61,156 bases of DNA from Folioceros fuciformis (Eukaryota): NCBI GenBank assembly GCA_049999805.1, contig JBNGIO010005882.1, forward strand, positions 1-61,156, in the 5' to 3' direction. Made by a program: the position numbers and the translations under genes. Of the stretch, positions 10,395 through 40,428 are shown one piece after another. Numbering within the stretch: the stretch's first letter is position 1; every line of letters begins with the position of its first letter. The notes beneath the pieces were generated by a model that ran no database searches, was not told where the DNA came from, and saw only the letters and a list, made by a program, of their open reading frames with translations.

Positions 10395-12799
10395 ATGTCT
10401 TGGTTTGATCTAAACAGTGACTCAGAGAGCTCTCCTTTTTCGTGGCTTTACTCTACTCCATCACTTCCTGCGCAATCAACGACACTCAGTACCTCTACTA
10501 TGTTGGCTGGAGTGGTCTCTGAGTCTACGTCCTTAGGATCACTCTACTCTAGAGAATTCAATTAAAAAGATCGATTCGATGGAAAGCCACTTCACTTTGA
10601 GAGTTGGAAAGCCCGTATGAAGGCGAACTTGGACGCTAGAGACGTTTGGGAATATGTGGATGGCTCCATTCCCAATCCGTTCTTGGTCCCTACCATAGCA
10701 ACAGTACAGCCGCCAGCATATGAAAAAGCAAAATGGAAGAAGGGCAGCAAAATCGCCTTTGCAATTTTGCTATCTGGCTTGGGCAAAACAACTGTTACTG
10801 AAGTTGATTTCCTTGACTCAGCTGAAGCAGTTTGGAATCAACTTACAGAGACTTACCAGGTTCAGAATATCCGCACCTTGATTAATGTCAGGAATGACTT
10901 TCACAGTCTCAGGTTGAAGGAGGGGGAACCAATTGGAGCACATATCACTAAGTTGAGGCACCTGCGAGCACAACTTGCTACGTTGGGTACCAAGATAACG
11001 GATGTGGAGATGACTACTCAACTACTATCCAGCCTTCCTTCTTCCTTCCAGACATTCATCTCAAGTTAGAATGCCACTCTGCATGATGCATATAAGGCTG
11101 CAGCGAGTGGACAACCTTCAACCCTGAATCTGAATGAAATCATTGGGGCCCTCCTGCAAGAGGAGCAGAGTCGCCAGCGAGCTCATCCAGGTTTAAGACT
11201 TCATGGTGAGAAAGTCCTATTTGCCGCAAAGGGTAAAGGACTTTGGAAATGGAAGGATAATAAGAACAAAAAAAGACAAAACTTATCTGCTCCTTCTGGT
11301 TCTTCTTCTTCAGCCACTAAGCGTCAAGGTAGTTGCAATTGGTACTAGATTCCTGGGCACTAGGAAAGAGACTGCCGGAAAAAGAAGGCCGGTGAGCCTA
11401 AGAAGGATGCAAGATCCGAGGCTCATGTTTCTACTAAGGAACATAAATTATTACCTGCTCGACAACAATCTACTCGAAGTAGCAGTATAGTTCTTACAGT
11501 TTGCTTGACGTCTACCATTGAGAACTCTCGGAGTTGGTATATTGACTCAGGAGCTACTGCTCATGTTTGCAATAAGCAGCATATGTTCACCACCTTTCAC
11601 GAACAGACAACATCTTTGTCAGTTTTTGTAGGAGATTCTCGTGGTGTAGAGGTAAAAGGAAATGGTGAGGCTAACATACCCTTGCTTGATGGCTCCACAT
11701 TGCATCTTCAGGATGTTCTTTATGTTCTTGAAATGGGTAAGGATTTGCGGTCAATTAGAGCTATTACAGAATACCATAGGTATGGCTTTAGGTTTGAAGA
11801 TTAGACTTGTTACATCTACTCTTTGTTAGATCCAGGAAGTTATCTTGGTAAAGCTATCCTTGTCAATGATCTCTATCAACTAGTACCTATTCAAAAGTCC
11901 AAGAATAAGGCATTACTTACAGCTTCGGATGTCCAGGCCCAAGTGTGGCACGCCAGACTAGGTCATGTGAATAGGTCTAAATTGGATTTGATGTCTAAAT
12001 CGTCTTGTTATCGTGGGAGTCTGCCACCATGTTTTAAACATCTTGCACCTTGTAGTTCTTGTATCCTGTCCAAGCAAAAAAGAACTACCCTTTAAGAATA
12101 AATATGCTACACGAGCAAAGCAAGTACTAGAACTAGTGCATGCAGACATAGCTAGAAAGTTACCTGTCAAAGTAAGTGACAATTGCCTAGTTCATGAAGG
12201 CTCCTGGTAGAGCTCACTGGTCTGCAGTAAAACGGATCTATCGTTATCTTAAAGGCACCATCAACCTTGGCTTACACTACATAGCTAGTGGTAAAAAGGA
12301 GTGTGTACTTACAATTTTGGCAGACGCAGATTGGGCCTCGGATTCTGACTCCAGAAAAAGTCTCTCTGCTTATGTCTGCTTCATCTCTTCTGACACTATC
12401 AACTGGTCCTACAAAAAGCAATCCTCTCTTGCTCTCTCATCTACTGAAGCTGAGTATAAGGCTTAGACAGAGGCGTGTAAGGAGATTGAGTGGGAAAGAC
12501 AGTTTCTAGAATCTATCTTCATGACTCAAAAGACAGCCACTCCTTTGCTATGTGATAACATGTCAGCTATCGCCCTAGTGGCCAATCCCAGGTTCCATGC
12601 TCGAACTAAGCATATCGAGCTTTACCATCACTATATAAGGGATGTGGCCGAGAGAGGAGTTGCTAAAGTGGATTATGTAAACACACACGACAATACTGCA
12701 AACTTGCTGACAAAAGGGCTTGCTAAAATCAAGCACTATAAGCATCTAACTTCTATGGGTCTGCGAGCTTTTATTATGCCTACGCAGAACAATTCTTAG
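10395..12799 (+). pseudogene. Copia-B gag-pol remnant lacking the integrase core and most of RT
   Basis: gag (WKARMKANLDARDVWEYV), protease WYIDSGATAH and WHARLGH are present. ELVHADIA then jumps at ~12180-12195 to the RT C-terminus (HWSAVKRIYRYLKGT) and RNase H (ADADWA, TEAEY, CDNMSAI, RTKHI). The start coordinate is approximate. Confidence 0.88.
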
Positions 12800-20760: not shown

Positions 20761-21828
20761 TTGTGATGAGAGGGACCACGTTTTCTGCCGGGCTTCTGTC
20801 AGGCACCTTGCTTAACAAATCGCATCAGGTTCCAGGCCATCTCCTCCTTTGCTGCACAGAGGTTCCATCACGGGGCTGCATTCCTTGACGCCAAGCATGC
20901 GCATGCGCATGTGCATGAACATGCGCGTTCAACATCTGGTGCCCGCGCGCATCTTGGCATAGCATCCAGGGCTCCTTCACCGGCAGTCCCTGAGGGGGGA
21001 ATATCCCGCGCGCGGGCTCCTCGTCCTCAACGCTGCATACAGAGGCGGCGACGAATGCTGTCAAGAGGGATGCAAACTGTCAGTGACAGTCGCACGGTTG
21101 GCTAGTACGCTCCCCCCTCTTGCATCACTTCAACTTGATCCAACGCCTCTTGAAACATTCAACCTGAGCATATATATACCACAAGGATTGCTGCAATTCC
21201 ATGTCCAAATGTGCCGCAGCTGCAGCTGTCAGGGCGCCCCAGGTGCTGGAGCATCCTCCAAGGTCCGGGCCCGGACCCGGGACCCGAGCCCGCATTTTGC
21301 TTAGTATTACACGTACATGAGACGAGACAGGTTCCCGAGACGGCAGCGCAGCAGCCTTCTTTCCTCTGTCCTGCTGATTGATTGATGCAAAGCTCCATGC
21401 TTGCACGTAAAGAGGCGGTGAAGAGAGTGGCGTAGGTAAACTGGATGGATGGGGGTCCAGTACTGCTCCCGCGAGAGTGTTGGAGTGGTTGCATACACAG
21501 GGAGTGTTCCTTGGCTCCGAATAACGTCTCCCGGGGGGACGTGGAAGAACCCGGGGGGCCTCCAAAATTAAGTAATTTTTTTTATCATATAATACGTATA
21601 AAGGAAGGAATGGAGGAAGGAAAGATTAAAAACAAAACAAAATCAAAGTATGATGGGGATGGTTAAGAAAATGTGAGCTGAGGTGAGGTAAGTTGAAGTC
21701 ATTAGTAGCCCTAGGCAAGGTGAAGGCGAAGGCCGTGGCGCGCGCGGTCTGTCTGTCTGTCCCTCCAAGTGCAGCGGAGTGAAGTGCGGGTGGTACCGAG
21801 TGAAGGGAAGGCAAGGCACGTTGGGAGC

Positions 21829-22365
21829 ATGGAATCCGCCAACCATTTTGGCGGTGTCCAGTGGAGAGACGAGCTGGCTATCTCCGACTCTAACGACAGG
21901 GCCGAGAAGCGCGTGGCCCCCTCCTTCTCCCACTGTAAAGTTTTCAGGGAAAGCGAGGAAGTCGGCAGAACCGTCGACCTTGCTCTCTTCACCACCTACG
22001 ACGAGCTGTGCGCTCGCCTAGCTTTCATGTTTGGGATGGACAAAATGGAACTGCAAAGAAATCTGGTATACACCGGCAAAGAAGGCTCCACTCTCCACGC
22101 GGGCGTCGAGCCTTACAGGTTGGTTGTTGTTGTTGCTGTTGCTGTTGTTGTTGTTGAGGCCACGTCTCTCGTTTTCTCGTTTTTCTACCCCGCCATCACT
22201 TGCCCTTGCAAGCCAAGGCCACATTGCATTGCCGCCGACTGGGACTCAGCTGGAGCGTCTGTGTGTGTCAGGACGTTCATGAAGACTGTGAGGCGTCTCA
22301 AAATTTTGTCCGACTCCAGCAGCGCAGCCATGGACTCCATTGCTGCGCCGGCGCCATCGTTTTGA
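21829..22365 (+). CDS. Stand-alone PB1 (Aux/IAA-ARF dimerisation) domain protein of class-C ARF type, ~127 aa, 2 exons
   Basis: Exons 21829-22118 and 22272-22365 (153-nt GT-AG intron) give HCKVFRESEEVGRTVDL...YDELCARLAFMFG...LVY...GVEPYRTFMKTVRRLKIL, resembling the ARF10/16-type HCKVFMESEDVGRTLDL...GDEPF. No B3 domain or GWPP degron was seen upstream. The start codon is uncertain. Confidence 0.8.
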   Translation: MESANHFGGVQWRDELAISDSNDRAEKRVAPSFSHCKVFRESEEVGRTVDLALFTTYDELCARLAFMFGMDKMELQRNLVYTGKEGSTLHAGVEPYRLVVVVAVAVVVVEATSLVFSFFYPAITCPCKPRPHCIAADWDSAGASVCVRTFMKTVRRLKILSDSSSAAMDSIAAPAPSF

Positions 22366-24499
22366 GCTAGCTGGTTAAGCTGGAGGGCGGTTGGTGGAGT
22401 ACCTTCTGCACCTCTGTTTTGCGGAATTGGAATTACTGCGGATTCTACTTAGGAAGTTTTCCCCCCATGTCACTGGGCTCCAGGCTCTGTGACACTCTTG
22501 TCTTCTTCGGACATCCATCTACGGCTCTGTTTTCCCGCGGATTGCGCACAAGGAGGGAGCAGCACTCGACGCACACCTGTGACAAGATCATGTCAACGCA
22601 GCCTACTGGTTTCAGGCATACTTCTTGGTTTCGCTCCCCTGCTGCCATGCTGTTGCTGCAAATCCGGGCTCACCATTTCAAGCTCTGTACTCGCTTTCCT
22701 CAGCTGCCAGCGCCATGCTTATAAGCCCTGTTTCGGACTCTGTACAGTTTGCGTCAATGCGCACAGCTGTTGCCGGCGGCGCCTCATACAACAACAAGTC
22801 TGGAGCTCTGAGACTACTTACTGTTCTTCCAAATCCTGGTTGCTCTTGGGCCCAGCTGAGCCAAGTACGTACGTAAGCTGCGGCTGTAGCATGCTCTACT
22901 TTTGGCCTGCACCTGTATTTTCGCCCCTGTCTCTTATCTGGACCTTGTTGCTTGATTACCATAATACCGGCGGGCAAGCCTGCAACTTCTCAGTGCCGTT
23001 TCACTTGACTTGCATCCAAGGGGCATGATTTCATAGTCCGCACACAACATGTGCTTTGGAACTACCACCCAACACTCCACTTGGTGTGTCACCTGACTTA
23101 GGGTGGCCTCCTGCACGTGGGAGGCAAAGCTCACCAACACCAAGCTGCGACACCTCTCTTCCTCGCGACACCGTCCCCCCATTCACAGTCTGCGCACTTC
23201 TATGACGCTTGCAAGTGCCAGCCAGCCACAGTAGCATGGCACCAAACCCTTCATCTGACCCTGACGTGCGTGCTGGACCTATCGCCAGCCTCCCCTCGCT
23301 GTCATAGCAATGTCACATCCAATTCGGAATGTGCTTGGCAAGAACCGTCGCAGCAATCACCACTCTCTCTTTTCTCCTGTAAACCTCTGTATCGTGGCAA
23401 ATTAGAGGACGGGTCTTGACATTCGATGCGTGCCAGAGTGCGAATCTCACGGGAGAGAGCAACACCTCTTCTTGCAGTACACATGCGAAGGCTCAGCCCA
23501 GCAAGTCCATACTGTCTGTCGGACGGGTCTTGAAATTTCGAGCGGAAGCCGGGTCGCTTATTGTTTTTTTGGCCATGGGGTGGGAGCATATCGAGGACTT
23601 GAATGATGAGGTATTTGATGGCGATGGCAAGCCTGTGAGTAGAGTGAGTAGCTGCTACTACAACCATCATCGCCGGGAGACGTTCGCTTCACAACACAAA
23701 AAGCTTACGATCAACGGTCCGCCGCAGTTTGGCGCACAACCAATGCGCTACGCGATTTGCCTTTCTGCGATTAAATATCATTCGGCGTAAATTAAGTTCA
23801 AATTAACAAATATTGAAACATAATAATAATTAGTTTATTGTCATCCGCATTCAGAATGTAGAGAAAATTGTATTGACCAGAAACGAAAAATGAGGAAAAG
23901 CTCCGTCCTAGCTGCGATTCGGATGCCGAGTACTGGTTGAGATGCGCAGGCAGGCCGGGGGGATCTCAGCAGCTGGGTTGTCGAGTAGCTACAATCGGGA
24001 GCCTAAACCTAGAGCTCATCTTCTCAGTTGTTGTTGAGCACATGAAGAATGTGTGAAGAAGGCATTGGAGTGCATGAGAAGGTCTCCATGTCACTTAACA
24101 AGTACTAGCTCCTATTTCTCGCTATGTGAGGCAACTCCTTTACTTCATGCAAACAAGCGAGAACATCTCTTGCAACTTTAGCACCTCTCCTCTCTCTCTC
24201 TCTTCATTTTAAGAAATTTGAATGCAAGGATTGCTCGTATGTTTTTGGGATAGCTGCCTTGGTTGCATGAAAACATCACCCACCTTCCCTACATACGAAA
24301 GGTTCAGTGAGATTTAAGAAAGGTACTTGTTTAAGAAACTAGGGCTTGCACACAAAACTACAAAGTCTTTTATCACCTAGATTGTATAAAGTCTTTTATT
24401 GTACAAATTGTATTTGAAGAAAAGAGGTGAAGACTACATTTTTAACTATATTAAAGATATTGAATATCCCTTTTGTTGTTGAAACGTCTAGTGCAATCG

Positions 24500-24773
24500 T
24501 AGGAAGATAATACCATATAGTATTTGTCTTTAAGATATTAATTCAAATGAGAAGGTGATCAATGTCAAATTATTTGGTAACCTTTTCCATAATGAAGAAT
24601 GTTTTATGCCGTGGATGAAAATCAAATACATATGTCCCAATTGTAGAGGAGAACTTTTCAATTATGGTTTTGAAAAACTAGACCACGTAAGAAGAAACCA
24701 AGAGAATCCTCGACGTTTGAATCTTTTGAGTTGTGGAATGGAAAAGTTAGGTATTTGGTCTATGAAAGTCTAA
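24500..24773 (+). pseudogene. Degenerate RING-H2 zinc-finger fragment
   Basis: LFHNEECFMPWMKIKYICPNCR resembles the C-terminal half of RING-H2 (HxFHxxCIxxW...CPxCR). The N-terminal ligands are missing and the context is AT-rich. Confidence 0.4.
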
Positions 24774-27288
24774 CGTGGTTCAAAGGGAGGCACATGGAAG
24801 GCAAGTTTCTGGGCAAGTGCCCAAGGTAGTGAGTGGCTGGTGAAGGTTTTATTGGATTTTTTTAGTTTTGTTTTGATAGGTTAGGTGTGTGGCAATAGGA
24901 CGAGGTAGCGCTCCTTTAGAAAAAGGAGATACCTACGTAGCTAGATGCGTAGATGCTTAGTAGGGAGAGTACCTATGTACGTTTACATACAGGTAGATAC
25001 CTACCTATATAACTTGAAAGATACCTACCTAGGGAAGGTACTTAGAGGGGAAGACCCTATGTAGACTACCCACCTATGAAAGGTGCTCACCTACAAAAAG
25101 GAAGTGGTTGGGAGCCTATTTACGGCAATGGGGGTAAGGAGCCTACCTAAGGCGAATGGAGCAATAGAGAACCTACGTACGGAGGGTACATCCTCATCCT
25201 ATGTAGAGAGGGAGGATCATCGAGAGACAATCCCTCCATCGAAGGGAGGAGTTCTTTCGGTTGAAGGACAAGCGAGTCCCTCCCCTACATACTTAGGAGT
25301 GATATGTATGTGGTGGTGAGGGGAGGCCCCAAGAGATCAACACAAAGGAAGGTTCAGGGAAAGCTCATGGATCTAAGAGAATAGGGATCCAAATAACGGA
25401 GAGGGCACAACAACCAATTGACTCCACCTCCCTTCACGAACAGTCCTAGCCACTCCCTTCTGGAGGAGGGGCCTAAGAATCCCTTATGAAGGCGCCGACG
25501 GTCTGCAACTTTCAGCGGCGCACATTGCCCTAATAGATTATTGGTAGGCCTTAGTATCTTGACAAGCGTGTATATTTAAGTCTATGGTGGCTAGCTTTGA
25601 GAGGATGGTAGCCCACCACCTACATGTAATGGAGGGTTCAAGTGTTGAGCTCTCCTATAAGAAGGGGCTACACAAAGAAATGAACCACCACATTGTGCAC
25701 TCTTCTCATGGCGAGTCCTCATACTCAGTTGAGCATAGGGATTACGTTGCTAGCTGTGTGCCATCACAATGCCTGGTTGTGGCAGAGTTGTAGTGGTCAA
25801 AGTGCTTGGTGAAGGGCTCATATTCTTGTATGGGCACCCCTACAAGTTGCTTCACTTGTGAATGGTTGTTGTGTGAGTTGCTTTGCTGTAGGTGTGTGGT
25901 GATACCTGCGTGATTGTTGGCTTGAGGCTAGACCGTAGGAAAAGACTCCATGGAAGTTCTCACTAACAGGTGCAAACATGAAGCAACCGGCCCAAGGAGA
26001 AACTTGTTGGTTGTTGGACGTATGGAGATCAGCAGTTGGATTGTTGGGTTGAGAAAGGTGTCATAGGGAGCCTTGTGGGGAAAGCAGTATTGAGTGTAGG
26101 GAGAGAAAAATCGGTAGGCGGAGTATTGGGGTCCTAATAAATGAGGGAATGGTGCCCTCCTGCTCATTGGACATGTTGTAGAATTGGTAGGTACATGATT
26201 GGGAGTGTTGATTATCATAGGTAAACGATAGACGTAGTTGGGGTAGCCGACCACTAGGCTCAAGGGAGCGATTCCATGGAAAACCTACAACGACTGTGGG
26301 AGTAATGTGGCCATGATATTTGTGAGCAATGTATGGTGGGGGTACCATACCCACTCGCCCACATGAATCCCCGTCTTCTAATATGTCAAGTTCAGGATGT
26401 TTGGGGTCCTTATTCTACCAACCAAGAGGTCGAATTGCTAGCAAGTTTATTAGAGGATCGATAGGATTTTCTTTCCCATACCGACCAAGACATTTGCATG
26501 CTTGTGACGTAGAAGGTCACTTTCAAGTTAGATCAACAGATGAAAGGGCTAGAAATGCTCCAAGTCCCACTTAGGGTAGATCTTTACAAGAAAGGTAGTC
26601 CCACTTAAGGTATATCTTCACAAGAAAGGTAGTATAGAAGCTCTTCACTTAGCAAGTTCTGATGACTCAAGATATCTTGAGCCATCTTGCTTTACTTGGT
26701 TCTAAAACGAAGTAAAGCAAGAGGTAGGATGGCTAGCAACCAAGACTTCTTTGAACTCCTTTATGGCTTCTTCTATAATTCTAGTGGTTATTCATCTTAG
26801 AAGAAAATTTTGGGCATACTAAACTAGTCCAACCAAGAGGTTGAAGGATTGGGAAATTTTTAAGATACCACTCATAAACAAGGCATATTAATTGCAAAGG
26901 ATGAGCAATGTGTGGAACGCCTATTGAGGAATGGAGAAGTATAAGAGGGGCATGTTAGGAAGCTCTCAGCGCACACTTAGGGACACCAACTAACTTTAGG
27001 CATGCACTTGGGTGCACCAACTAGCTCCTCATGCTCATTTGGGCATGCCAACCAGCTTCACTTGCTTTGAGTATGCACTTGTGTGTGCTAACTAGTTCTT
27101 AGCATGCATTGATGCATTTGTGGGCTCTCCACATGCATTGTTATAGAAACGATGCAAGAGAGTCCTTTTACCGTGTTGCTGGGTTGGCTCCTATGCACAA
27201 CTTTTTTTTCATGGAAGAAAATTTATATTGAGATAGCTCACGCTAGAAGATCAGAACAAAGATAGGGTGTGGCTAAAGCAGGTCACTT

Positions 27289-27317
27289 AACATGTTCTGC
27301 GCCTAACGGTCGTATTC
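27289..27317 (+). repeat. Left TIR AACATGTTCTGCGCCTAACGGTCGTATTC
   Basis: Reverse complement of 34268-34296 with 2 mismatches. Confidence 0.92.
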
Positions 27318-27606
27318 TATGAAGCCCGTTTGGCGCACATTTGAATTTACACCATTCTAGTCACATATCCACACTGTTTTTTTTTTAAACCACCTGTTTT
27401 GACGTGTGGTGGACACCATCCATCTCCACAAATGTGCCAACAACCCACAACCAACTGAGACATAAGTTATTAAGACTATAAAAATTTAGACAAAAAACGA
27501 ATCGTACTTCATGTGCGCCGGTCTACCAGCGCACTCAACAATATGTATGGGTGACAGGAAGTTGGCTATGCGCATGCCATGCATTAAAAAGCTTTAAAAG
27601 TCAAAT

Positions 27607-30478
27607 TTAAATATCATCATAATGTATCACGGACCTCAGCTACTCTCTAAATCTTCTCTACAACAAATCATGAATGTTCTGGTTGGCCTCGGAATCGACA
27701 ACTATATCTACATCTTAGAGGCGCTGGCCCTATGTGTCTCCGAAGTCGTCTCCCTCTACGTCCAGGACAAAGAAATGTGGGTCGTCCACTGTGTAAGGCG
27801 GAAGTGTGCCATTCTCATCCCAAATTGTCATCGCGTACAGATCTTCCGCTGGTCTGTCGTCCGATTGAGAAATTATCTCTCCCTTTTTCCCCAACAAACT
27901 GTACACCTACATACCTCGATCCACGCTACCGTCCGCGCAGACTTCTTTGGCCCAAAACTTCGTGGGCCCGTGCGAGAAGGGGTCAGTGCTGATCTCTTCG
28001 TCAACGTCTGGCAAAGATCCAATGTCATTCACTCTCTACATCATGTAAGTCGTGCATCGTATATCGACGTCCATCGCGACAACATGCCTTCCTCTCTGAA
28101 TTGCAGCCTGAAGGAACGACCCAGATCCTGCACACGCATCCAATACCCAGTCTCCTTCAGCCGAAAACATATTGACTAGCATTCCCATTCACCCTAGAGG
28201 CTTCTGATACGAGGAGACGACCATCGAATCTGCCGAGTGAAACAGATGTTTTTTAACCACAGCTCCATGCCTTATTACTCTCGGCAAAAGAAATCCCTTA
28301 TTAGCAAATAAAGCAACTTTTGTGGTCTGCGCTTCTGAGTGGACTGCACTTCCAACAGTTAGATACTCCACAGTCTCCACTGCCCCTGCATTAGGAGGAA
28401 TGTTGGTCTTCTCCCATACCAATGTCTGTATGGTGCCCTTCTTGCACCATGGCTGAAGTGCTTCCCTCGCCTACGTCATGAGGTCCACCCCATGCATGAG
28501 GACCACTCTATACACATTACTACTTGTGCATTCAGAAAACCCTCTTATCATGTCTTCAAGTTCTTTGCAAGTCAGCTGCCTATCAAAGTCATGGCGGTGT
28601 AGTCCGTGAGGCAAATCAGCGAATAAAAGAGTATACGGTCATTTTACTAGAAATCCATTCATCTCCAGAACGTTTCGCTGTATTACTTGATACTTGGTTT
28701 TTTGGTTGGTGTTGGGGACTCTAAACTCCGACAATCCTGCATCCATGTCAACGTCCTCCATTTTCTGTTTTTCCTCTTCCATGCACTTCTAGTTTCTCAC
28801 TGAATACACGTAATCCTGGAAAGGCTTCGGCAATGATTCGAGATCGTTTATGTCTGCAAGTTTTTGCCAACAAACAGTTTCGTCAGCACAACCACACTAT
28901 GGCCACAATTATACACTCTAGACTACATGAACCCTTAACCATGATGACACAAACTACTCTTCTGACTTGAGTGCGCCGATAGACCGGTGCACTCCCCCCG
29001 AGTCTCCCTCTTTTGGAGTGGACGTGACCAACTTCACTCCAAAAGATGGACAGGACCTGCGATCGTGTTCTTCCTCTTGTGCGGTGAAGAAGATGTCACT
29101 GAAACATTTCAAGATGGTAAACAAGATGTCAGCGTCAGTGGCCTTTCAAGATACCCGTTTCTGCACAGATGAGAACAGTAGGATCAACGGGTGAGCTCTG
29201 GACAGCAACTTGTGTTTCTCTTCCGCATCTTGGACAGAGAGGTGCTTGCAGTCTTCCTCTTCGGTAGCCCGGCGCACCGTCTTCTACTTCTTCCAGGGTG
29301 GGGTTATCTCTATTGGCGAATCTTCTTCACCCTCTTCTTCCTCTCCAGAGCCTCAAGCCGCATCCAGGGCTTCATTTAGGTTGTCCTCCGTGGAAGAGTA
29401 ATGTCCCATCTCTCTGTCCTCCTCACGGCTAAGTTGTTTAGGGTCACGGAGGTCGTCTTCTGAAAGCTCTGGCTGCATGTGCAGCATCTCTACCGGCTTC
29501 TCAATCCTCTCCGTTTGCCTTGATGAGATGGGGCCAAACTCTGCTTGCATGGACACCCACTGGCGCTCTCCTGCAATTCTCGAAGCAAGAGCTCGATTCT
29601 TGAGGACGCAATCGGCAACAAAGCGCAAGACAGTCGGACAGAATTGTTCACCACTTTGCAGGAAACACGTTATGCAAATGTTTAGGGTTATGTAATGCTG
29701 GGTTAATAAACGTAAACAAAGAATCCACAAAACAAATACTAACATCTTCCACATTCATGCAATCTCACAAAGCGGTTTTTAGCCACATCGATTCACAGCG
29801 CTGTGGCACAGCTCTCGCGACATTGACTACAATCAGGCTGTGGCTATCGTAGTCATCGGTGACATGGCTTGGTGGGTGCCGCGTGCATATGAAATTGACA
29901 TGGGTTTCCTCTTCCATGCCATCAACAGATGCACACAGAATCCATCCAGGCCTCCCTGCCTCATTGTCCTGCAACCGTTGGAAACCGTTAACCCATAGAG
30001 CCACCAGTGGCACCCAAGGAAAATTGCAGTCTTCTGGCTCCTCTTCTAAGAGTAAAAACCACTTTTTGTCTGTGTTGAATCTTTTGGCAAGTGTGTCTTC
30101 AAGCTTTTTTAGCTTCAAACGCTCAACAAAGTTGTACGCATTTGGAATGTTGTGGTTTTGACTACCACCCGTGCTGCCACCCTGAGTCACATTCACAAGA
30201 ACATGGTTAATATGAACGTCGCTAGCTTTGTTGTTCGAGGCACGGACGCTCCTGGCTGAATTGTCTTTCCTTAATGTAACAACTGGTGGCTGTGGTGTAA
30301 CATCCCCTATTGTGATCGTTGGTCTTCGATGACTATCTCTTTCAACGATTGGGCCAGAGGCAGTGCGAGCTGAAGCTTTCACTCCCTGTCATGGTTTCTT
30401 CAACCTTGGTGGTGCCTCCAATGCTTGCATGTCAATGGCCGCATTCAGTTGCTTGTTGCTCTGCCGGCCAGCTGCCAT
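27607..30478 (-). pseudogene. Transposon-borne protein with a C-terminal beta-class N4-cytosine/N6-adenine DNA methyltransferase domain (N6_N4_Mtase-like), disrupted by stops
   Basis: One frame from 28740 to 28021 reads KYQVIQRNVLEM...PYTLLFADLPHG (motif IV, DPPY-like)...TLVWEKTN...VEYLTVG...YQKPLG*MGMLVNMFSAEGDWVLDACAGSGSFLQAAIQRGRHVVAMDVD (motifs X, I, II). Motif IV precedes motif I, which is the beta order. The N-terminal part starts at putative ATG 30478, with an apparent intron at ~29655-29765. The stops read are TAG/TGA/TAA. Confidence 0.82.
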
Positions 30479-30835
30479 CTTCGATCGCAGTAGAGAGCCT
30501 GTGAACGATGGAACTTCAAAACACTTGGTCTGATCCAAAAGGACTAAAGAATGGCTTAAGCATTGAACTAAGAGATTTGAAGTCAACTGTGAAGTTGAAT
30601 TTGTGTTTCCTGAAATAGCAAGGGTGTTTGAACAACGTCTCCAGCATTTATGCCACAACAACGATTGTAGACGCCGTTTCGGACCAACAACCGCTATTTG
30701 TTATCGTGATCAAACGTTTATATTCAAGTGTCGGCTTAATTACGCTAGTGTAACCTGTCTTCAATCAAACTCTGAGTGACGTTAGCTTCCATTCTGTAAG
30801 GAAGGTCATTTGCGAGCAATCTTTGCGACATTGGC

Positions 30836-33800
30836 ATGGATTGGCAAGCTTCTTCTTCACGCGACGTGGTGGCGATGACAACAACGGATTTCAACTTTCA
30901 AGGTAGGCGAGGAATTCGGTTCGCGAAGGGCATTCGTGTGTTCTAGTTGGAAGTCTTATGTTCTCTATTTGCGTCATGATGCTTTGTAGTCGATGATTCA
31001 GCAGGTGCCGACATCGACTTACGAGCGTCGCCTATACGCCTTAGTCTTCTCGACGACATCCACACTTCAACAAGCCCATTGCGAACCCAATCGCCTTTTA
31101 GGCCAGCAATCAGGAAAACAACACCTATGAAGGGAAATGCGGACGGCACTATCTTGCACGATAACCTTGATAATCTAGATGTGAAAGGAAATGCGAGTGG
31201 AAGTTGGGTACTAGGAACATCAAGCGGGGAGCGCTTCCATCCCGAAGGCGAAGGAGCGGATGTGTTGTCCGAAGAAGCTGGCAGGACGATGGGCACAACG
31301 GTGCAAAGAACATACAATCTGAAACCATCATCCGAATCTCTGATTGAAGCTCCTAGAGATCATCGACGCAGTCGAAAGAAAAAAAATCTTGACTGTACCT
31401 GAGGCAAAGTGCTCTAAGATCCGTATTTCTGCAGATTGCCGCAGGATATGTTGTGCAAAGCAGTGTCTTAGATCCTTGGGTAAACCAGGCTTTCGGGATT
31501 TGAGGTATCGATTTTTAAGCATGTGCCGGACAGAGCAAGAAATGTTTTTGCAGACCTTATTTGATGTCAATCGTCCTTATGATGGACGCTCTACAGCGAA
31601 GACTTTTTTGATTGGATCTGCCAAGATATGCTGTTGTCGGGACGCCTTCAAACGAGTTTTTTGTATCAGTGTGAATTTTTTGCTACTAGCAGAATGCATG
31701 GCGAACATTGAAGTGTACCATCTTCCAGACTTGTACACAAAAGAGGATTTTTTTTGGGAGTACAAGCAGCAAATGCAATGAGCGGAACAGTACAGTATGT
31801 GTTACTCTTATTTATGTCAATTGTGGGCTTCACATTTCCACAAAGTGCGAATTCCGAAGACCAACAGGTTTTTGCTTTGTACAACTTGCAACTACTTGGA
31901 AAGAAACATCAGAGCCGAGTCTGATAAGAAGAAACAAGGTATGTAAGTGTGTTTTTTTAGGTACGTTTCATGTAGGCATTGGAAGTGCGCCGGTCGACCA
32001 GCGCACTTTCAACCCTCCTTCCGTGATAAGTGCGCCGGTTGACCGACACATTTTATTAGCTGCGTAGATAGTGGGTGTGCGCCGGTAGACCAGCGCACTC
32101 CCTCTGCTTAGCATCACGAAGTCTGTGGGCTGACTGCACATTGGTGGGAGTGCACCGGTAGACCGACGCACTCTCTCTGCCTCCTCTCACGAAGTCAAGG
32201 GTCTGACTGCGCATTGGTGCACCGGTCTACTGGTGCACACCCACCTGGTCGCACCCTTTTTTCTTATTCTGATTTGAAATTCCATGTTTTTTTTTGTAGA
32301 GGGCTTCGAATCTGACTTGAAGGTACATCGAAATAGATTGATAGCAGAGCACGAGAAGAGTATCAAACATCGGGTCAAATGTTATGGCGACCACGGAAAG
32401 TACATTGGGATATCAGTGGATGGAATGGATCAACAAAAGACTCAGCTGCCCCATTTCATTTGAGTACCAAAAGATTTGGTGGATGTTGGCCTCCTTGATG
32501 TGCATGTGGTAGGGTGTATGGTATACAACAAGACTATGAGACCGAAGCTCTTCATCAAGTTCGGCAACATTCAGAACGATGCAAACCTAACAATATCAAT
32601 TATCCAACGCGTGATTCACGAGTACGACGGCCCGCTACATGAAGTTCTATACTTGCAGCTAGACAACACTGCACGCGAGAACAAAAACACGTTGCTTTTT
32701 TCTTATTTGAATATGTTAGTGGAAATGCGGGTTTTCGTGAAGATTTTTAAGTCGGGTTCTTGTTAGTGGCCCACACGCACAACCAGGTTGATCAGATGGT
32801 TTCCAGGTTTTCAACGGCACTTGGTTAGAGGGAAGCTTTGACTTTACCAAAACTTATTGCAGTTATGCAAAACGCGTATACCCCCATGCCAAACGTTCAT
32901 GAGGTGAAAGAGGTGGCGGACTTCAGAAAGTTTGTGTGGCCTGTACCGTACGGGAAAGCAGGATATCAGAGTGTTGCAGCGGTTCATCAGCTGCATAATA
33001 TATCGTTTCAACACCAGTTCAAGATCACGAAAGAGAGCCGCGGAGATCGTGGACTTGTTTCAGTTATGAGAGGCAAAAAATATTCCACCGATCAATATTG
33101 GTTGCCTAATGACGGTATAGAATTTCTTAAATTAGTTCCGGATGGGGTTATAAAAGCCACTCCACTAATGCATTTGCAGGTGAGGAGAAGGAAACAGAAG
33201 ACTATTACTAACGATGTGCCAGGATATAATCTGTCGCAGATTCGATCAAGATTGGAGTGCAAATTACGGCAGCACTTAGGTCTGGGCGAGGACATGTGGT
33301 GGGATTCATTTTGGGCCGAGCAAGAGGCCATTGTTCAAATAATAAATTCGGGTGTGGAGCAAGACCTTGACTGGCCATGGCGATGGTATAATCGCGACAA
33401 GGCAGAGTTGTTGAATACCCCATTACTCGTGCCAGATGCTGTGGTATTGGAAAACCCACGGATACGAGAAGTTCCTAGAAGAAATATGTATGTGGGACCT
33501 TATAGAAGAGACGCACACGTTCGCAATGATGTTGACAGCTTCAGTGGAGATGTATCAAAGATCGAAGCAGGGCACATGATTGCTGTCCCATGCGAGATAA
33601 ACGAAGACAACAGGCCTTTTTGGATCGCCAAAGTGTTAGACACACAGAAGGAAAATGACACTCATAGTATCACAATCCATTGGTGGGTCACGAAATGTTC
33701 AGATGCATTTGAAGGATGATATCAAGAGGAGATGATATTGCCAAATGAAGAACCTCCCATGGGTTAGACTAGACAAGGACGTAAGCGACGGCCAAGCAGA

Positions 33801-33947
33801 AGACTTCGGAAGCATATTGACACAATATCTATTGCGAACACTTTTATCTTAGCGTGTGGATTGGAGTTGACTCGTCAAAAACAGCTGCACGCTCGCACTC
33901 GAAACCTTATTAGAAAGAACTTGTATGTGCTCGTGCCGGTAGACTAG
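30836..33947 (+). pseudogene. Sola1-like DDD transposase, intron-containing, disrupted
   Basis: N-terminal Cys region CCAKQC...CRDAFKRVFCIS and FPQVRIPKTNRFLLCTTC, then an intron at ~31939-32299. Catalytic motifs follow: ISVDGMDQQKTQLPH, LYLQLDNTARENKN and FLLVAHTHNQVDQ. There are a few stops and frameshifts. The start at 30836 is inferred. Confidence 0.85.
31985..32238. repeat. Five copies of a 22-bp imperfect palindrome (consensus GTGCGCCGGT-NN-ACCGGCGCAC) in the transposase intron
   Basis: Copies start at 31985, 32030, 32077, 32150 and 32217. Further copies lie at 27513, 28971 and ~33931. Confidence 0.88.
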
Positions 33948-34267
33948 CGCACTCCTTCCGTTGATGCATAAATGGGCAATATTGAAAAACCCTTACCATT
34001 TTTGAATTTCTAGTATTTCCGATTTCAAAAATTATCATTCCGTCTACATGCAATTGGTAGTGTCAGACCAACCGTGGAACTGGATAGGATCAAGGAATTT
34101 CACTGCTAGCCCGCAATTTTGCCTAGTTTCTGGGTAAACATGATGAATACAAGGTTCGTCGTGACCGCTGTTCTGTAGATTTGGGGGTAATCGACACCAA
34201 ATAGCATGAATCCTAGATATGTGCCACAAAAAATAACGCAGAAAATGACCCGAAGCCCGATTTGGCG

Positions 34268-34296
34268 GAATACGACCGTTAGGCGCACAACTTGTT
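34268..34296 (-). repeat. Right TIR AACAAGTTGTGCGCCTAACGGTCGTATTC (read on the - strand)
   Basis: Matches the left TIR and is followed by the ACTT TSD. Confidence 0.92.
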
Positions 34297-34300
34297 ACTT

Positions 34301-35230
34301 ATTGTTATTGCCTAGTGTGGTCAATAAAACAGAATATGCTAAAATTGGGTATGGATGAGGATTTGGAGACAAACCAACCCACGCCTTAAGTCAAGCAAGG
34401 AGTATAACAAGAGTGCTTTACCCTCTCCATGGGCACAAGTGGTTCCATACCATCTCTCTCCCCGCAGCGAGGAGGCTAGCTTGCCTCCAATTCATGCTCT
34501 TGAACTTGTGTGGGTTGGCCACTTTTGCTTCTTCTACCAATATGAGAATGTGCTCCCAAATTCGCTAAAGCAAAGATTTAACTGTCATTAGATCTCCCCC
34601 CCCCCCCCCTTCACAAGCCACCGTTATCCAGTTGAGCCAAATGCTAGAGAGACTAGAACTCACACCAAGCCCCACTATTGTTGTTGGAAGAGTGGTTTGC
34701 CTATAGTTTCATCAAGGCTAACGAGAGTAGTCTGCTCTGTAATAAGAAAATTAGTCTTCAAGAAGAGGCACAATAGCCACCTTCCCCCCTCCCTCCGTAC
34801 TGCTTGCACGTAATCATACCAAAAGAACAAGTGTTGACTTTTGTTAGGTGTGCTAAGAGGGCACATTCAGCAGAATTCCTCGCCCACCGTTGTTAGCAGC
34901 CCATCCCATTTGTCGGCCATGGACAAACAAGCTTCAAAGAAACTCCAAATCAAAAGTCTGACTTTAGGGGGGATACCAATAGCTAACCACAACTCGCTGC
35001 CGATGCATTATTAAGAGTCTTAGCCTCGAAACCATTGGTTTGCACAAGGGATTCCTCTTCAACCAAACCAACCAATGGTAGATATTTGTTGTCTGGTGAT
35101 TGAAGAAGCGTCGGGTGCAGCCCTGTTGACTACCCAGGCCGGCAGGTCACATGATCAGATCTTGTCACATAGTAAGTTGCCAATTGTCTAACGTCCTAAA
35201 CCACCATTGACGCTTGGGGCAACATGGGGG
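34301..35230 (-). mobile_element. LINE (L1-like) ORF2 3' fragment, decayed
   Basis: The - strand gives VAPSVNGGLG (post-RT PxxxGGLG motif) and CPLSTPNKSQHLFFW (zf-RVT-like). A possible 3' end with AATATAAA and an A8 tail lies left of the Sola element at ~27202-27284. Confidence 0.55.
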
Positions 35231-36285
35231 AGTGAGCCCCCTAGGATGTTCTGCCTCCACTCGCCATCGTCCGGCCCATATGGTGCGATGCAACATTGTA
35301 ATGGATCTCAGAGAAGAGGTCAGCTAGGGCAATGCATGCATACTTACTATCTAACATAATGTAATTTTCTTCCGCAAAAAGGAAAAACAACACTCTATGT
35401 AAACATGGAATACAATGTTCATTATGACATCCATCCATCTTGGAAGGTCACTTGGGGCACTCATCCACCTAAGGAGGTTGGTTGCCGGGAATATCCATCC
35501 ACCGTAGGAGGTCACTTAACCTCGATAAGTTTTGATAAGAGTATGTGTAATTATCATAGCATGATAACACCACATGCAACCTAATTTTCATAGATACTCA
35601 ACTGCAATTACAACACATATAATATATGTATAAATATGATATAATATAATATAATATAGTATATATGTGCATGACAAGAGATTATTACAAGGTTGGAGAG
35701 TATTTTATTTAAAAAGAGATAACAAATCCCATAAAAGAACCAGTCTTTCATATTGAACTCCATTTATATGTAGTTTGTTAAACATAAATCTTTGGAAAGG
35801 AAAAAAGTTTTTTTTAATGATCTATCACGGACACTCCTTAACTGTAGAGTTCTTATGGGATCTTAAGTACTATAGCATGAACTCACCATGCATAGCTAGT
35901 CATTCATGCTCTCTCATAAACCACATGGAAACGTAATTCGCCCCCTAATTGGGACTTACCAGAGTAATGGAAATGGTGTTCTTCCTCTTGTCTATGTGGT
36001 GGTTTTTTTTTGACAAAGCATATCGATTGGTATGTAAAGAGCAATAGCCAACACAGTTTTTAGAATAGCAACAAGCAGCTTCTTTTGGCACCGGTGGTAG
36101 TTAGGCCTTGTGTTATTTCACAACATGATATTTTGCAAGCAGTAAGTAGTTTTCAAGAAAGATGTTCAAAGGGCTAGCACCCCTTGTGGCCTTGGGCCTT
36201 GTTGGAGTTGTTCTCCAGTCTTTGGAACAGATGGGAGTTTCAATAATAATCTCTTTTTCAATAATAAGGATAAAAAAAATTGGAA

Positions 36286-36385
36286 NNNNNNNNNNNNNNN
36301 NNNNNNNNNNNNNNNNNNNNNNNNNNNNNNNNNNNNNNNNNNNNNNNNNNNNNNNNNNNNNNNNNNNNNNNNNNNNNNNNNNNNN
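36286..36385. other. Assembly gap (100 N)
   Basis: Run of N. Confidence 1.
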
Positions 36386-36827
36386 TGAAGTTGGTGTTTG
36401 AATTGGTTATATATATATATACATATTTTAGGGTAAAATTAGAGGTAAAATCTATGTTTTCAAAAAAATATCAATTATTATATAGAAAAAAAAATCTCAT
36501 TGAGGCCTTTTCCAAAGAAAGTAGTACGAAAGAAAGGTATGTTAAAAAAGCAATTTTATTTATAAGATTTCCAACTATGGCATATTAGTTTTAGATACTT
36601 AGCTCCACCTAAGTCAAGATGTAGTCAGGTTTGCAATTGCACATAAACACAATAATTTATGACAACCAATTTATTAATAAGTCCTTACATAAGAATTAAT
36701 GTAAGCTATCGCGTATAAATAAATTGAACCAAGAATTACTGAATCTATTTACATCGACTTAATCTTACATCTGAAGTTCAAACATGACAATCTTAAACCA
36801 AAAAACTCATAAATTGATGAAAGTCTA

Positions 36828-37961
36828 TTAAGGTGAACCTGAAATATTTTGTTCTCGAAAAAGATTGTACTTGGGTCTACCTCTTTTACTTGCAATTCCC
36901 CAATGTCTTTCAACTGGATTTAAATTGTCTGGTTTTTGATCCTCATCCGTCAAACCAAAGAGAAAGACAGTTAAGTGACGGTTTGGTCTCATAGGAGTTC
37001 CCTCTCCCCTCCTCAAGTAGTTCACAAGATTTGCATTATAGCGATGCGCTACTGTCAAATTGGCATATTGACTACCACTAGTAGGCCAACCTGTTTCTGT
37101 AATTATCAGCTTCATGTGCTCGTGACCTAGTTTGCTTAAAGCAGATACTGCATAGTCAAAAGCAGCTTGAAAAGCACTAGGATAGTTTTGACCTACCATA
37201 TTATTATCTTCAAAAGCCCAATCAAAAGGATAGTTAGGGTTGAGAGCGTAGAAAGGATATATATTAATTGAAAATGAACTGTTATGTTCATGCAAGAAGC
37301 TTGTTATTTGTGTCATAAGGGATGATATTTCGTTCCTGAATACACCGTTATGAGGATCATTAAGAGGGTCTACAACTAGCACACTTCCACTAAACGGAAT
37401 TGTGAGCTTTACAGAATTTAAATTATTTGAATCCAAGATCGACTGTATATTGTGAAGTGCTCTCATTACTTGCGGGCCAAGAGCAACATAATTTAATATA
37501 TCCGGCAAATCTGGCTCATTCCCTAATGCAATGTGCCTGCAAACGCAGAAACAAAACATGCATGAGCATCCGTGTTTATTAGCAATAGTAAACAACAGAC
37601 TTAAAAGTTCCACTCACGTAATAGTTGCTCCTCCTTTCACGTAAGGGAAGATATTTGTCATAACCCAAGAATGAGCAAATTCCCTATCCGCCATAGCTGT
37701 TACGTTCTCATTTGGACATCCAACTATGACTTTTATCTTTGGATGGCTCATTAACTCATGCAAGTATGCATGATCTGGTTCAAAAAACTTGATTCTATTG
37801 AATCCATATGTGCGTATCAAACGAATACCATGTTGTGGGCTGAGAGGATGAGAGGACAACATCCCCCAATTAATACCTATGCCATCAATTTGCAAAAGAT
37901 ATGGCAATACCGATAGTAATAACAACAAGAATTGTAGGAATAAAGTTCTTCTTATAGCCAT
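36828..37961 (-). CDS. Glycoside hydrolase family 17 beta-1,3-glucanase, secreted, ~350 aa, 2 exons
   Basis: Exons 37961-37618 and 37536-36828 (81-nt GT-AG intron). Signal peptide, IGINWG, IALGNEP (acid/base Glu), INIYPF, IITETGWPTSG (nucleophile Glu) and ERHWG. No X8 domain or GPI tail. Confidence 0.93.
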
Positions 37962-38099
37962 AATGGAAAATTAGTCCTTGTATCTTTAAGAACCCTAAAA
38001 AGAATCCCTGTATCTTTCAAAGAGAAACGAAAGAGCTAAAGTCATTTGCCATCCAAATTTGAACAAGTTACAAACTCCTAATTAACATGCTAAGAATGA

Positions 38100-38245
38100 C
38101 CAGCCCTTTCTCTGAGAGGGAGTGACCATCTCCCTTGTAGGAGAGATTGACCACCTTCCTCTAGGAGAGTAGGACCAACTCCCTCTAGGAGAGTATGATC
38201 ACCTCTTTTTATAAGAGTAAGAATGTTTTTCTCATAAGAGAGTAT
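38100..38245. repeat. Degenerate ~26-bp tandem repeat (GAGAGTxGACCAxCTCCCTCTAG-like)
   Basis: About 5 visible degenerate units. Confidence 0.6.
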
Positions 38246-38410
38246 AAACAATTAAAAAGTAATAATTAGTACCATAATCAAAGCGGGAGTGAAAGACTAC
38301 CTACTACTACATCTTATAATGAAAAAACACCATACAATGAAAAGATTTTTTTTTGAATACAACACTACCTTTCTTCTCGTCAAGGTTCTTCTCAAAGCTC
38401 TTACAACCTT

Positions 38411-38576
38411 TAAGCTCTTTGAAGAGCTCCTACTAGCTTTCAAGTAAGCTCTTCGAAGAGCTCCTACCAACTTTCAAGTAAGCTCTTTGAAGAGCTCCGA
38501 CCAGCTTTCAAGTAAGCTCTTCGAAGAGCTCCTACCAGCTTTCAAGCACTCCAAAGAGCTTCTACAACCTTTCAAG
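38411..38576. repeat. 34-bp minisatellite, ~5 copies, with internal palindrome AGCTCTTCGAAGAGCT
   Basis: TAAGCTCTTYGAAGAGCTCCTACCAGCTTTCAAG repeated head-to-tail. Confidence 0.9.
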
Positions 38577-38789
38577 TCTTTATGAGTTACATGAACCCTT
38601 CAGAAGATATTTAAACTGCTGGAAATTTGAATGTGTTGAGAAGGTAGAGCAAGTCTTATTTAGCATTAATCTTAAATTGTTAGCATGTCTTATTTAGTCT
38701 GAATCTTAGATTATTAACTTTGTTTTAGCCTTGAAATCGTGAACTTTCTTAGACCTCGAGCCAGCTTTTATGATTACTTGCATAGGAGA

Positions 38790-39605
38790 GGGAGTGAATG
38801 TGCACCATCCATGTTTTTTATCACCGTAGTGAGTTAGTATGAATTGTTCATTCATTTCTTACCACCAAGGTCATCCAAACAAGATAGAAGTTAGTAGGAA
38901 TCATCATTTCTTACCACCATGGTTATCCAATCCCAATGGAAATTAATTTGAACCATCCATTTCTTACCACTATGGTTATGCAAATATAATAGAAAGTTTA
39001 TGTGATCCATTCATTTCTTAGCATTATGACTATCCAAACACGGATAGAAGTTATTGTGAAGCATCCATTTCTAAGCCCCATCATAGAAGTTAGTATGAAC
39101 TATTCATTTCTTAACACTATAATTATCCAAATACAGTAGAAATTAGTGTGAATGATCCATTTTTTTTTATCATTGTGATTATCCAATCAAGACAAACCAT
39201 CTATTTTTTACCACCATCATGGTTCTCCAATCACAATAGGAGTTAATTCAATAAAAGATTTCTTTTTTTTTTTCGTAAAAAAAAAGATATTTAAAGAATC
39301 AGCTTCGAGCGAGATACAAGGACCATTGGATAGAAGTTAGTTTGAACCATCCATTTCTTATCACAATGGTTATCCCAAGATATAAATCATCTGTTTTTTA
39401 CTAATATGGTTATCCACACAAAATAAACCATCCATTTCTTACCACCATAGTTATCCCATCACAATGAAAGTTAATTCGATGGAAGTTAGTATGAACCATC
39501 CATGTCTTACCACCATAGTTATCCAAACATGATATGAGTGAGTGTTAACCATCTATTTTTCACAACCATGGTTACCCAATCACAACGAGAGTTAATTTGA
39601 ACCAA
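38790..39605. repeat. Degenerate ~55-bp satellite-like array (GAAGTTAGTATGAACCATCCATTTCTTACCACCATGGTTATCCAA)
   Basis: More than ten diverged units with recurring CCATCCATTTCTTACCACCATGGTTATCC. Confidence 0.85.
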
Positions 39606-40428
39606 TTAGTCAGCAACCTACTTGCTCTGCCACTGAACAGCGCGACCTAGCGATGCGCGATGGCATAAGCGGCAGCCAGCACGCCCCACGGTTGTGCGGC
39701 GGCTTGTGGGGCATGATATCCCCGCTTCGATCGTGCCCCACGGTTCCGTGCGCTGTCCATGATCTCTCAGTTTCCATCCCTGAGGCACACGAACCCCGTC
39801 CTGTCCGACCTACATCATGCCCCACGGTTGTGGAGGCGCAGCTCATGCTGTGTGACAGTTTACGGACGAGCACCGGAATGCGTGGAATGCCGAGTCATCT
39901 CCGCGATAACTTGTGAAACAGAAGGACAAATTGTACATTCTAGTGTATATTTGTCGAAAACCTGGAGTGATCGCCTTCGTAGTACAGTGGGTTATCATTT
40001 TCTGACGTTCGTGGTGACCACGCCAGCCTGGACATTTGAGGAGGACGGGGTGCGTGAGTTTCAATTCACAGATGGAAACTCTGGCCACAATGGTCTGGTC
40101 AGAGAAGGAACCCCTAGACACCGCAACCGTTCTTTTCTGAGCACCGTGTCTGACAGGCCGTCAGAATGTCATGTGGATGGACCTTTGTGCCTCGATCTTT
40201 CACCAGATCCGCTTCCATGGTACCTTGCACCAACAAGAAACTTGCCACCAGATTCAAGAACAGTATCACGTCAGATAGGTCCTTGAACATGGACAAGTCT
40301 TCAATGGGGCTGCCACCTGTTTAATTACCATAGTCATCCATCTCAATTATACCTCCTCAAAACATGAGGCCATTAGGTACAACTGGCCCTGAAATAATCT
40401 GCACTGAAGGTCCGTCACCCGTCACGCG

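Follow-up and report, generated by a model that had tools for sequence, protein, structure and literature searches.

A stop-interrupted beta-class amino-methyltransferase-like gene within a probable DNA transposon of Folioceros fuciformis

The stretch of DNA analysed here, referred to as the window, comprises 61,156 nucleotides of contig JBNGIO010005882.1 from Folioceros fuciformis (assembly GCA_049999805.1, positions 1 to 61,156 of the forward strand). Sequence analysis confirms that its minus strand encodes a hidden, stop-interrupted domain of the beta-class N6_N4 amino-methyltransferase type. Probably, a cut-and-paste-type DNA transposon of about 7 kb (27288-34297) carries this methyltransferase-like gene, here as a dead copy; the element would be bounded by 30-nt inverted repeats and would also carry a DUF7869 gene and seven 22-nt palindromes. 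An earlier note, made from the sequence alone, had placed a beta-class domain with an atypical DLPH catalytic motif at 28021-28740, and that call is borne out by a PF01555 match, by relatives in a protein family, by the ranking of solved enzymes against the family profile, and by the modelled fold of the closest intact relative, P0004.

The methyltransferase-like pseudogene (27925..28875, minus strand) was delimited as the span homologous to its relatives, using tblastn, PF01555 and an alignment, A1, of the window's copy with 23 relatives. It reads from 28875 to 27925 in one frame with five in-frame stops and no frameshift, since P0004 gives a single tblastn alignment in one frame (residues 10-317, E 1.4e-38, from 28875 to about 27925), which outreaches the interval first proposed. 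Four of the stops lie within 28021-28740, as had been reported (TGA 28641-28639, TAG 28473-28471, TGA 28191-28189 and TAG 28038-28036), and a fifth lies upstream of it at 28791-28789, so that the window's copy has no intact reading frame. Reading through 28788..27907, with stops written as X, yields a 294-residue string, and the strings LLFADLPHG, LVWEKT, EYLTVG, YQKP, FSAEGDWVLDACAGSGS and VAMDVD listed in the earlier note are all present in the translation. The frame is comparatively open both upstream and downstream of this part. With 127 relatives as tblastn queries, 27925..28875 is the only span of the window matched at E<=1e-3. The antisense open reading frame (ORF) of 193 amino acids at 27598-28179 (plus strand) has no Pfam match at E<=1, and the window holds no second copy of the methyltransferase gene or of the element.

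The PF01555 (N6_N4_Mtase) profile, whose use had been proposed as a check, matches the read-through protein with 32.2 bits against a gathering cut-off of 26.7. Motif IV, D-L-P-H-G, lies at 28603..28617 (minus strand; His codon CAC at 28608-28606), followed by an L-V-W-E-K-T-N block at 28402..28422, in which the W is invariant and the K and N nearly invariant in the family. A Y-Q-K-P block at 28198..28209 (Q and K invariant, P nearly so), which aligns with the Q-K-P or Q-K-S of M.RsrI and DpnA, stands just before motif I, the S-adenosylmethionine (SAM)-binding string D-A-C-A-G-S-G-S at 28117..28140, where D, G and G are nearly invariant and where the PF01555 match falls (profile positions 163-212). 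This glycine-rich motif is of the FxGxG type, its C-A-G-S-G-S aligning with F-A-G-S/T-G of M.RsrI and TTHA0409. The permuted motif order of the class is present, with DLPHG at residues 58-62 and DACAGSGS at residues 217-224 of the read-through protein P0002. The canonical (D/N/S)-P-P-(Y/F/W) motif is absent, the window having D-L-P-H and its clade D-L-P-R. A single-sequence search of the PDB, together with NCBIfam, returned weak matches only, to CcrM, M.RsrI and TTHA0409, and a word-index homologue search with the read-through protein found nothing.

A HMMER scan of 1.84 billion representative proteins with a 675-residue read-through frame as query detected 123 relatives at E<=1e-3, with 23 at <=1e-10 and two at <=1e-30, which together with the PF01555 score puts the match well outside chance. 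The best, P0004, has E 5.4e-36 over query residues 294-604; all 123 align to the methyltransferase part, and query residues 1-293 are matched by none. The closest relatives are P0004 to P0007, P0011, P0017 and P0049. Named members include four proteins of Chara braunii (GBG86584.1, GBG75370.1, GBG66685.1 and GBG82070.1), four of Adiantum nelumboides (MCO5553878.1, MCO5614432.1, MCO5579754.1 and MCO5611298.1), two of Riccia sorocarpa (KAL3677677.1 and KAL3685543.1) and one of Ginkgo biloba (Gb_37443). Relatives P0012, P0044, P0080 and P0091 match PF01555 nearly in full (profile positions 2-3 to 215-220). Invariant in A1 are motif IV's L, D and P, the WxKxN block's W and the YQKP block's Q and K, and the D..G.G of motif I is nearly so; no invariant or near-invariant column is lost in the window's copy (motif IV L, D and P; W.K.N; QKP; D..G.G). 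Judged by sequence, the family appears to be a streptophyte branch of beta-class N6_N4 DNA amino-methyltransferases, found in stoneworts, liverworts, ferns and Ginkgo, and is apparently undescribed in the literature. A metagenome locus search with P0015 found no confirmed relative.

In thirteen long members (P0008, P0015, P0031, P0033, P0043, P0044, P0050, P0061, P0077, P0091, P0092, P0098 and P0124), the methyltransferase domain is preceded first by a shared N-terminal module containing a conserved G-G-x-H/N...E-A string and then by a helical middle module; in Chara GBG86584.1 this whole arrangement occurs twice. A ParB-like identity of the N-terminal module, considered on account of the string 'VGGGHSREA', was not supported, a profile of 12 long members matching no PDB ParB chain at E<=1. 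Pfam gave DUF6551 only, at E 0.019 in one protein. Neither the N-terminal module nor the 'middle' module of P0134 has left a detectable trace upstream in the window.

For the AlphaFold model of P0004, 32 relatives were used and the broken copy of the window was excluded. The mean predicted local distance difference test score (pLDDT) is 69.7; in the core (residues 70-330) most 10-residue blocks exceed 90, and the tail is disordered. The model has a methyltransferase fold like that of solved beta-class enzymes, a statement that concerns P0004 and not the broken copy itself. The first Foldseek matches all belong to the beta class of DNA amino-methyltransferases: CcrM (E 1.4e-13), then M.BceJIV, M.MboIIA, M.RsrI and M1.HpyAVI, the first four lying between E 1e-13 and 1e-11. 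The cytosine-N4 (N4C) enzymes rotifer N4CMT and M.PvuII are matched at E 5.6e-11 and 4.5e-10. Run against PDB sequences, the family profile places DpnA/M1.HpyAVI at 65.5 bits, CcrM at 60.9, M.RsrI at 55.8 and M.MboIIA at 53.4, and the N4C enzymes lower (rotifer N4CMT 37.2, M.PvuII 23.7).

If the domain instead belonged to a methyltransferase of RNA or small molecules, this would account for matches over the SAM-binding motif to FtsJ (23.3 bits, cut-off 24.1), Methyltransf_25 and Cons_hypoth95. These matches are below the Pfam cut-offs and confined to the generic SAM-binding stretch, whereas DNA adenine-N6 (N6A) and N4C enzymes come first by many orders of magnitude in both profile and fold comparisons, and the permuted motif order with WxKxN and QKP blocks is of the PF01555 type. 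No better match to such families, which the earlier note had named as grounds for abandoning its call, was found, and we regard this alternative as very improbable.

Within the DNA amino-methyltransferases, the ancestral enzyme may be placed provisionally. The first motif IV residue is Asp in 23/23 relatives and the Ser of SPPY/TSPPY (N4C type) is absent; no special kinship to N4C enzymes was found, given D rather than S in the motif and N4CMT ranking below the N6A enzymes in the PDB profile comparison. The evidence favours an ancestral adenine-N6 DNA methyltransferase, because N6A enzymes head the PDB profile ranking and Asp occupies the first motif position. The beta-class domain has switched repeatedly between N6-methyladenine (6mA) and N4-methylcytosine (4mC), according to passages of PMC8885841, which agree with the earlier statement that the motif alone cannot separate 4mC from 6mA.

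The family consensus of motif IV is D-[ILFVA]-P-Y-G among the 23 aligned relatives. The second residue is I in eight, L in five, F in four, V in three and A in three, with P in 0/23, while the fourth is Y in 18, R in three, H in one (Ginkgo) and S in one. A maximum-likelihood tree of 43 rows (quick search, with Shimodaira-Hasegawa approximate likelihood ratio test (SH-aLRT) support) places the window's copy inside an eight-row clade with SH-aLRT 97. All five clade relatives covering the motif read DLPRG, and two further members are without the N-terminal part. The Arg appears to have been retained across substantial divergence, because the clade proteins share only 36-54% identity with P0004. 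Other genomic copies were compared through contigs of two DNA runs of one sample of the same organism (X1 and X2), placed on 22001-40000 at >=80% identity. At plus-strand position 28607, the middle base of the His codon, the window has T; in the other copies C accounts for 134.5 of 156.5 depth units in X1 (10 contigs) and for all 87.9 in X2 (seven contigs), and C there changes the codon to CGC, encoding Arg. The window's DLPH therefore derives from DLPR by a CpG transition (CGC to CAC), because the clade reads DLPRG and most other copies read C at 28607.

Two origins had been offered for DLPH. The first, a DLPY decayed by one T>C change, does not hold, as clade members read DLPRG and other copies give CGC, that is Arg and not Tyr. 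The second, a family-specific variant, stands in part: a non-proline second position is family-wide and Arg is clade-wide, but His is private to the window's copy. The aromatic residue of motif IV stacks on the flipped-out base, according to passages of PMC4738411, and in the window's clade a conserved Arg replaces this base-stacking residue; the SAM-binding motif and the remaining invariant positions are retained.

The element is present as many diverged copies in the genome. In X1 the summed contig depth, which is not a copy number, was 152-839 across 27401-34000 and 5-15 over most of the flanks (22001-24400 and 34601-40000, with one bin at 44), an excess of 13-75 times. Of 2006 X1 contigs, 225 were at least 99% identical to the window, 360 lay at 95-99%, 676 at 90-95% and 745 below 90%. 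Among the differences transitions prevail, with 263 C>T and 255 G>A compared with 66-95 of every transversion type. Its numerous C>T and G>A changes, taken with the five stop codons, show the window's copy to be a decaying, dead relic that has no function of its own. At the left edge of the repeated interval, contigs of the unique flank (X1 and X2) end at 27323, just inside the left repeat, and on the right the X1 summed depth falls from 203 (34001-34600) to 14.9 (34601-35200).

Two further runs gave observations of their own. In run X3, of the same sample, C>T (943) and G>A (674) differences are in large excess, with 46-82 changed letters per contig of 400-1450 nt; the run resembles a methylome library converted by bisulfite or enzymes. 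Run X4, guessed to be RNA, has no depth over the methyltransferase gene, which has no bearing on its expression. A 582-nt X4 contig (depth 107) matches 34146-34287, roughly the final 140 nt ahead of the right inverted repeat, with 21 differences and diverges at 34287; it may represent a related element end in a transcript or in contaminating DNA.

The left terminal inverted repeat (27288..27317, plus strand) is 30 nt long and 93% complementary to the right one (34268..34297, minus strand), with which it pairs at a distance of 6950 nt. Its 24-nt core occurs at two sites only in the window, in opposite orientation, with none expected from 100 shuffles. A CpG-rich 22-nt palindrome, GTGCGCCGGTnGACCnGCGCAC, has seven sites in the window, all within the element, with none expected by chance: a subterminal copy at 27513..27534, a copy at 28971..28992, some 100 nt upstream of where methyltransferase homology begins, and a five-copy cluster at 31985..32238, between a Cys-rich ORF and the DUF7869 domain. 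Junctions of other genomic copies (27536-32077, 28991-32077, 32010-27513 and 32173-27514) coincide with the palindromes, which could be protein-binding sites or recombination hot spots.

These data bear on whether the pseudogene is instead the decayed paralogue of a domesticated host amino-methyltransferase of, for example, the Marchantia DN4MT1 type. Domesticated beta-class enzymes are described in Marchantia and rotifers (in passages of 10.1101/2021.02.12.428880 and PMC8885841), and in four plant genomes the annotation treats gene models of the present family as ordinary proteins. The 13- to 75-fold depth spread over about 2000 diverged contigs, the inverted repeats, and the several paralogues in Chara and in Adiantum nevertheless speak against a host paralogue, as do a motif IV that starts with D where the reported TSPPY of DN4MT1 has S, and the weaker match of rotifer N4CMT relative to the N6A enzymes. 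We consider this alternative improbable.

The second recognisable gene of the element, a broken transposase-like gene (31344..33719, plus strand), consists of a Cys-rich N-terminal ORF (31344-31781) and a DUF7869 domain (PF25273, 32488-33047) with a frameshift near 32745, the domain scoring 74.6 bits and 65.7 bits in two different frames, a strong match. The frameshift is private to the window's copy, because the other copies covering 32747 are two letters shorter there (64.1 of 64.1 depth in X1, 63.7 of 63.7 in X2). We infer a transposase role for the DUF7869 protein from D..D..HTH..D-like strings (HTH, helix-turn-helix) read by eye, from the inverted repeats and from the copy number. It is transcribed oppositely to the methyltransferase pseudogene, which reads on the minus strand towards the left end of the element. 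A protein atlas gave weak leads for the DUF7869 ORF (scores 0.89-0.91), with PF25273 in 12-20% of the members of two of the three listed clusters. A word-index search with the 296-aa DUF7869 ORF (32829-33716) found no relatives among longer proteins, and the literature search found no paper mentioning DUF7869.

Several points weigh against the reading of the locus as a dead passenger gene of this transposon. The PF01555 match of the window's copy covers only its C-terminal 50 residues, and its motif IV region is linked to the family through the relatives only. The comparison of motif IV with other copies draws on a difference table of the 40 best-supported of 3131 places, with the other two codon bases and the stops outside its coverage. 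The target-site duplication is ambiguous: with a repeat start at 27290 both sides read ACTT, and with a start at 27288 only CT. DUF7869 is by name a domain of unknown function, and the transposase role is our reading of it and not an assigned one. The membership of both genes in one element is taken from a single copy, the shared elevated depth and the enclosing repeats. A contig seen in both X1 and X2 joins 27536 to 32077, so some copies are without the methyltransferase part.

This last junction also speaks for a different arrangement, in which the methyltransferase-like and DUF7869 genes belong to two different nested or adjacent repeats, the inverted repeats bound only one of them, and the methyltransferase family rides on another element or forms a dispersed repeat of its own. 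Depth varies five-fold along the interval, the long relatives from other plants have additional N-terminal modules and no transposase domain, and the ORFs at 32829-33716 and 29768-30388 had no relatives in word searches and thus give no sign of a fused form. Both genes nevertheless lie between the sole two copies of the repeat core in 61 kb, the 22-nt palindrome adjoins both and occurs nowhere else in the window, and their summed depths are similar (366-506 in the methyltransferase bins, 543-554 in the DUF7869 bins). Two separate repeats are an unlikely explanation, and a single transposon carrying both genes is probable.

If the locus is such a transposon, intact elements would be moved by the DUF7869 protein acting as transposase, and the methyltransferase and DUF7869 genes would travel together. 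The enzyme from which the passenger descends would have been an adenine-N6 DNA methyltransferase, and intact DLPR proteins, as far as their sequences indicate, may still bind SAM and DNA and serve the transposon. Retained SAM binding is suggested because motif I and the acidic residue after the strand next to it are conserved in P0004 to P0006. Such proteins could methylate DNA with an unusual pocket, or could be catalytically impaired, DNA-binding accessory factors; we hold the two to be about equally probable, because the base-stacking aromatic residue is replaced by a conserved Arg. A broader proposal, which we put forward tentatively and regard as doubtful, is that the family has been spread through streptophytes, from stoneworts to Ginkgo, by DNA transposons and that its old Arg clade, with SAM binding retained, represents either a new type of active site (a transposon-encoded 6mA or 4mC writer of land plants) or a SAM-sensing DNA-binding factor, marking or shielding transposon DNA, perhaps at the 22-nt palindromes, against host silencing by 5-methylcytosine (5mC).

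Between the two recognisable genes, the element contains three open frames of 133, 207 and 103 amino acids (29353..30700, minus strand). Their depth (150-360, compared with some 10 in the flanks) is elevated, as elsewhere in the element. No Pfam family matches them at E<=0.01, a weak Macin match (E 0.06) being below the cut-off. The 207-aa ORF (29768-30388) has neither a word-search homologue nor a usable protein atlas match.

The rest of the window is plant nuclear DNA, as indicated by a copia-type gag, a Pol beta-barrel domain and an exon of a GH17 glucanase. Two fragments of copia-type long terminal repeat (LTR) retrotransposons lie at 4094-7211 and 10566-11804, with gag PF14223 at 103.5 bits in the second and the Pol beta-barrel at 71.6 bits. 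The GH17 exon (glucan endo-1,3-beta-glucosidase, 36831-37613, minus strand) scores 125 bits, and an AUX/IAA-like stretch at 21724-22362 scores 22.1 bits, just below its cut-off; because of these two, the flanks are taken to hold ordinary plant genes. Immediately left of the element, 24401-27288 is repetitive (summed depth up to 597 at 25601-26200) and has no sequence in common with it. Tandem 34-nt units occur at 26563-26630, and 38790-39600 holds about ten diverged direct repeats of 47-54 nt each.

This setting also bears on whether the pseudogene is a remnant of a bacterial or phage restriction-modification system, acquired by recent horizontal transfer or present through assembly contamination. 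PF01555 is mainly prokaryotic, and distant relatives occur in phage contigs (117 of 575 candidate stretches at tblastn E<=1e-3). The best methylases from phage and giant-virus-size contigs, however, reach 55-63 bits over 50-280 residues, compared with 141 bits for eukaryote-like relatives. The flanks are of plant type (the copia gag and the GH17 exon described above), the same DNA is assembled in contigs continuous with them, and no restriction enzyme gene adjoins the pseudogene. A remnant of this kind is very improbable, and the earlier framing of the gene as a restriction-modification gene foreign to plants is misleading, its closest relatives being streptophyte proteins and the gene lying within a repeated, probable transposon.

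The window's own copy shows ordinary decay and matters only as a pointer; the novelty would lie in the family, its transposon context and the conserved Arg. A dedicated 6mA or 4mC DNA writer in land plants is disputed, and the finding offers a testable gene family in Chara, liverwort, fern and Ginkgo, tied to a mobile element. The recently recognised carriage of DNA-modification enzymes by transposons, described for retrotransposons with C5 (cytosine-5) and Dam-type enzymes, would be extended to a beta-class enzyme on a DNA transposon, and the conserved Tyr-to-Arg change poses a sharp biochemical question.

The bacterial beta-class N6A enzymes CcrM (6pbd), M.RsrI (1eg2), M.MboIIA (1g60), M1.HpyAVI/DpnA (5hek) and M.BceJIV (8urk) belong to the same PF01555 family and share the permuted order, with the catalytic loop before FxGxG, as well as the WxK and QKP blocks. 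Most of them carry a D-P-P-Y motif. The plant family differs in its non-proline second residue, and the window's clade in having Arg for Tyr; the plant genes would also sit in a eukaryotic transposon and not in a restriction-modification or cell-cycle context, and identity to P0004 in fold alignments is only 14-20%.

Rotifer N4CMT (8s9m/n/o; PMC8885841, PMC10406627) and Marchantia DN4MT1 are likewise beta-class PF01555 enzymes of prokaryotic ancestry residing in eukaryotic genomes. N4CMT is reported as one host gene (an allelic pair) with a fused chromodomain, and PMC8885841 states that it has no eukaryotic homologues; DN4MT1 is reported as two tandemly duplicated host genes, with a TSPPY motif according to passages of 10.1101/2021.02.12.428880. 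The present gene, in contrast, is multicopy, probably transposon-borne and has a motif starting with D, the comparison with DN4MT1 being by description only. Passages of Iyer et al. 2016 (PMC4738411) set out six group-1 eukaryotic clades and few N6A-methyltransferases in land plants, and none of the clades given there fits the present family.

Among mobile elements, no PF01555 enzyme on a plant DNA transposon was found in the literature, the search having covered articles apart from the supplementary files, which could list such genes. Dam-type adenine methyltransferases with an Asn-Pro-Pro triplet are reported on LTR and DIRS retrotransposons in the available text of Fernandez-Moreno et al. 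2026 (10.64898/2026.05.21.726589), where neither 'land plants' nor 'Embryophyt' occurs and the sole streptophyte mention is of DNMT3 on Gypsy elements. In passages of Iyer et al. 2016 the methyltransferase domain of DIRS1 is judged inactive because of active-site substitutions. These enzymes share with the present case a prokaryote-derived amino-methyltransferase carried by a eukaryotic mobile element; the retrotransposon Dam-type enzymes differ in class, their triplet being compared with that of T4 and E. coli Dam, and in lying inside an LTR or DIRS polyprotein. De Mendoza et al. 2018 (PMC5890265) describe retrotransposon-encoded C5 DNA methyltransferases (DNMTs) of charophytes and dinoflagellates, and PMC12730594 describes fungal DNA transposons carrying TET/JBP. 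The enzymes there are a C5 methyltransferase and a dioxygenase, respectively, and the likeness lies in a DNA-modification enzyme as a transposon passenger, which in the fungal case is likewise carried by a DNA transposon.

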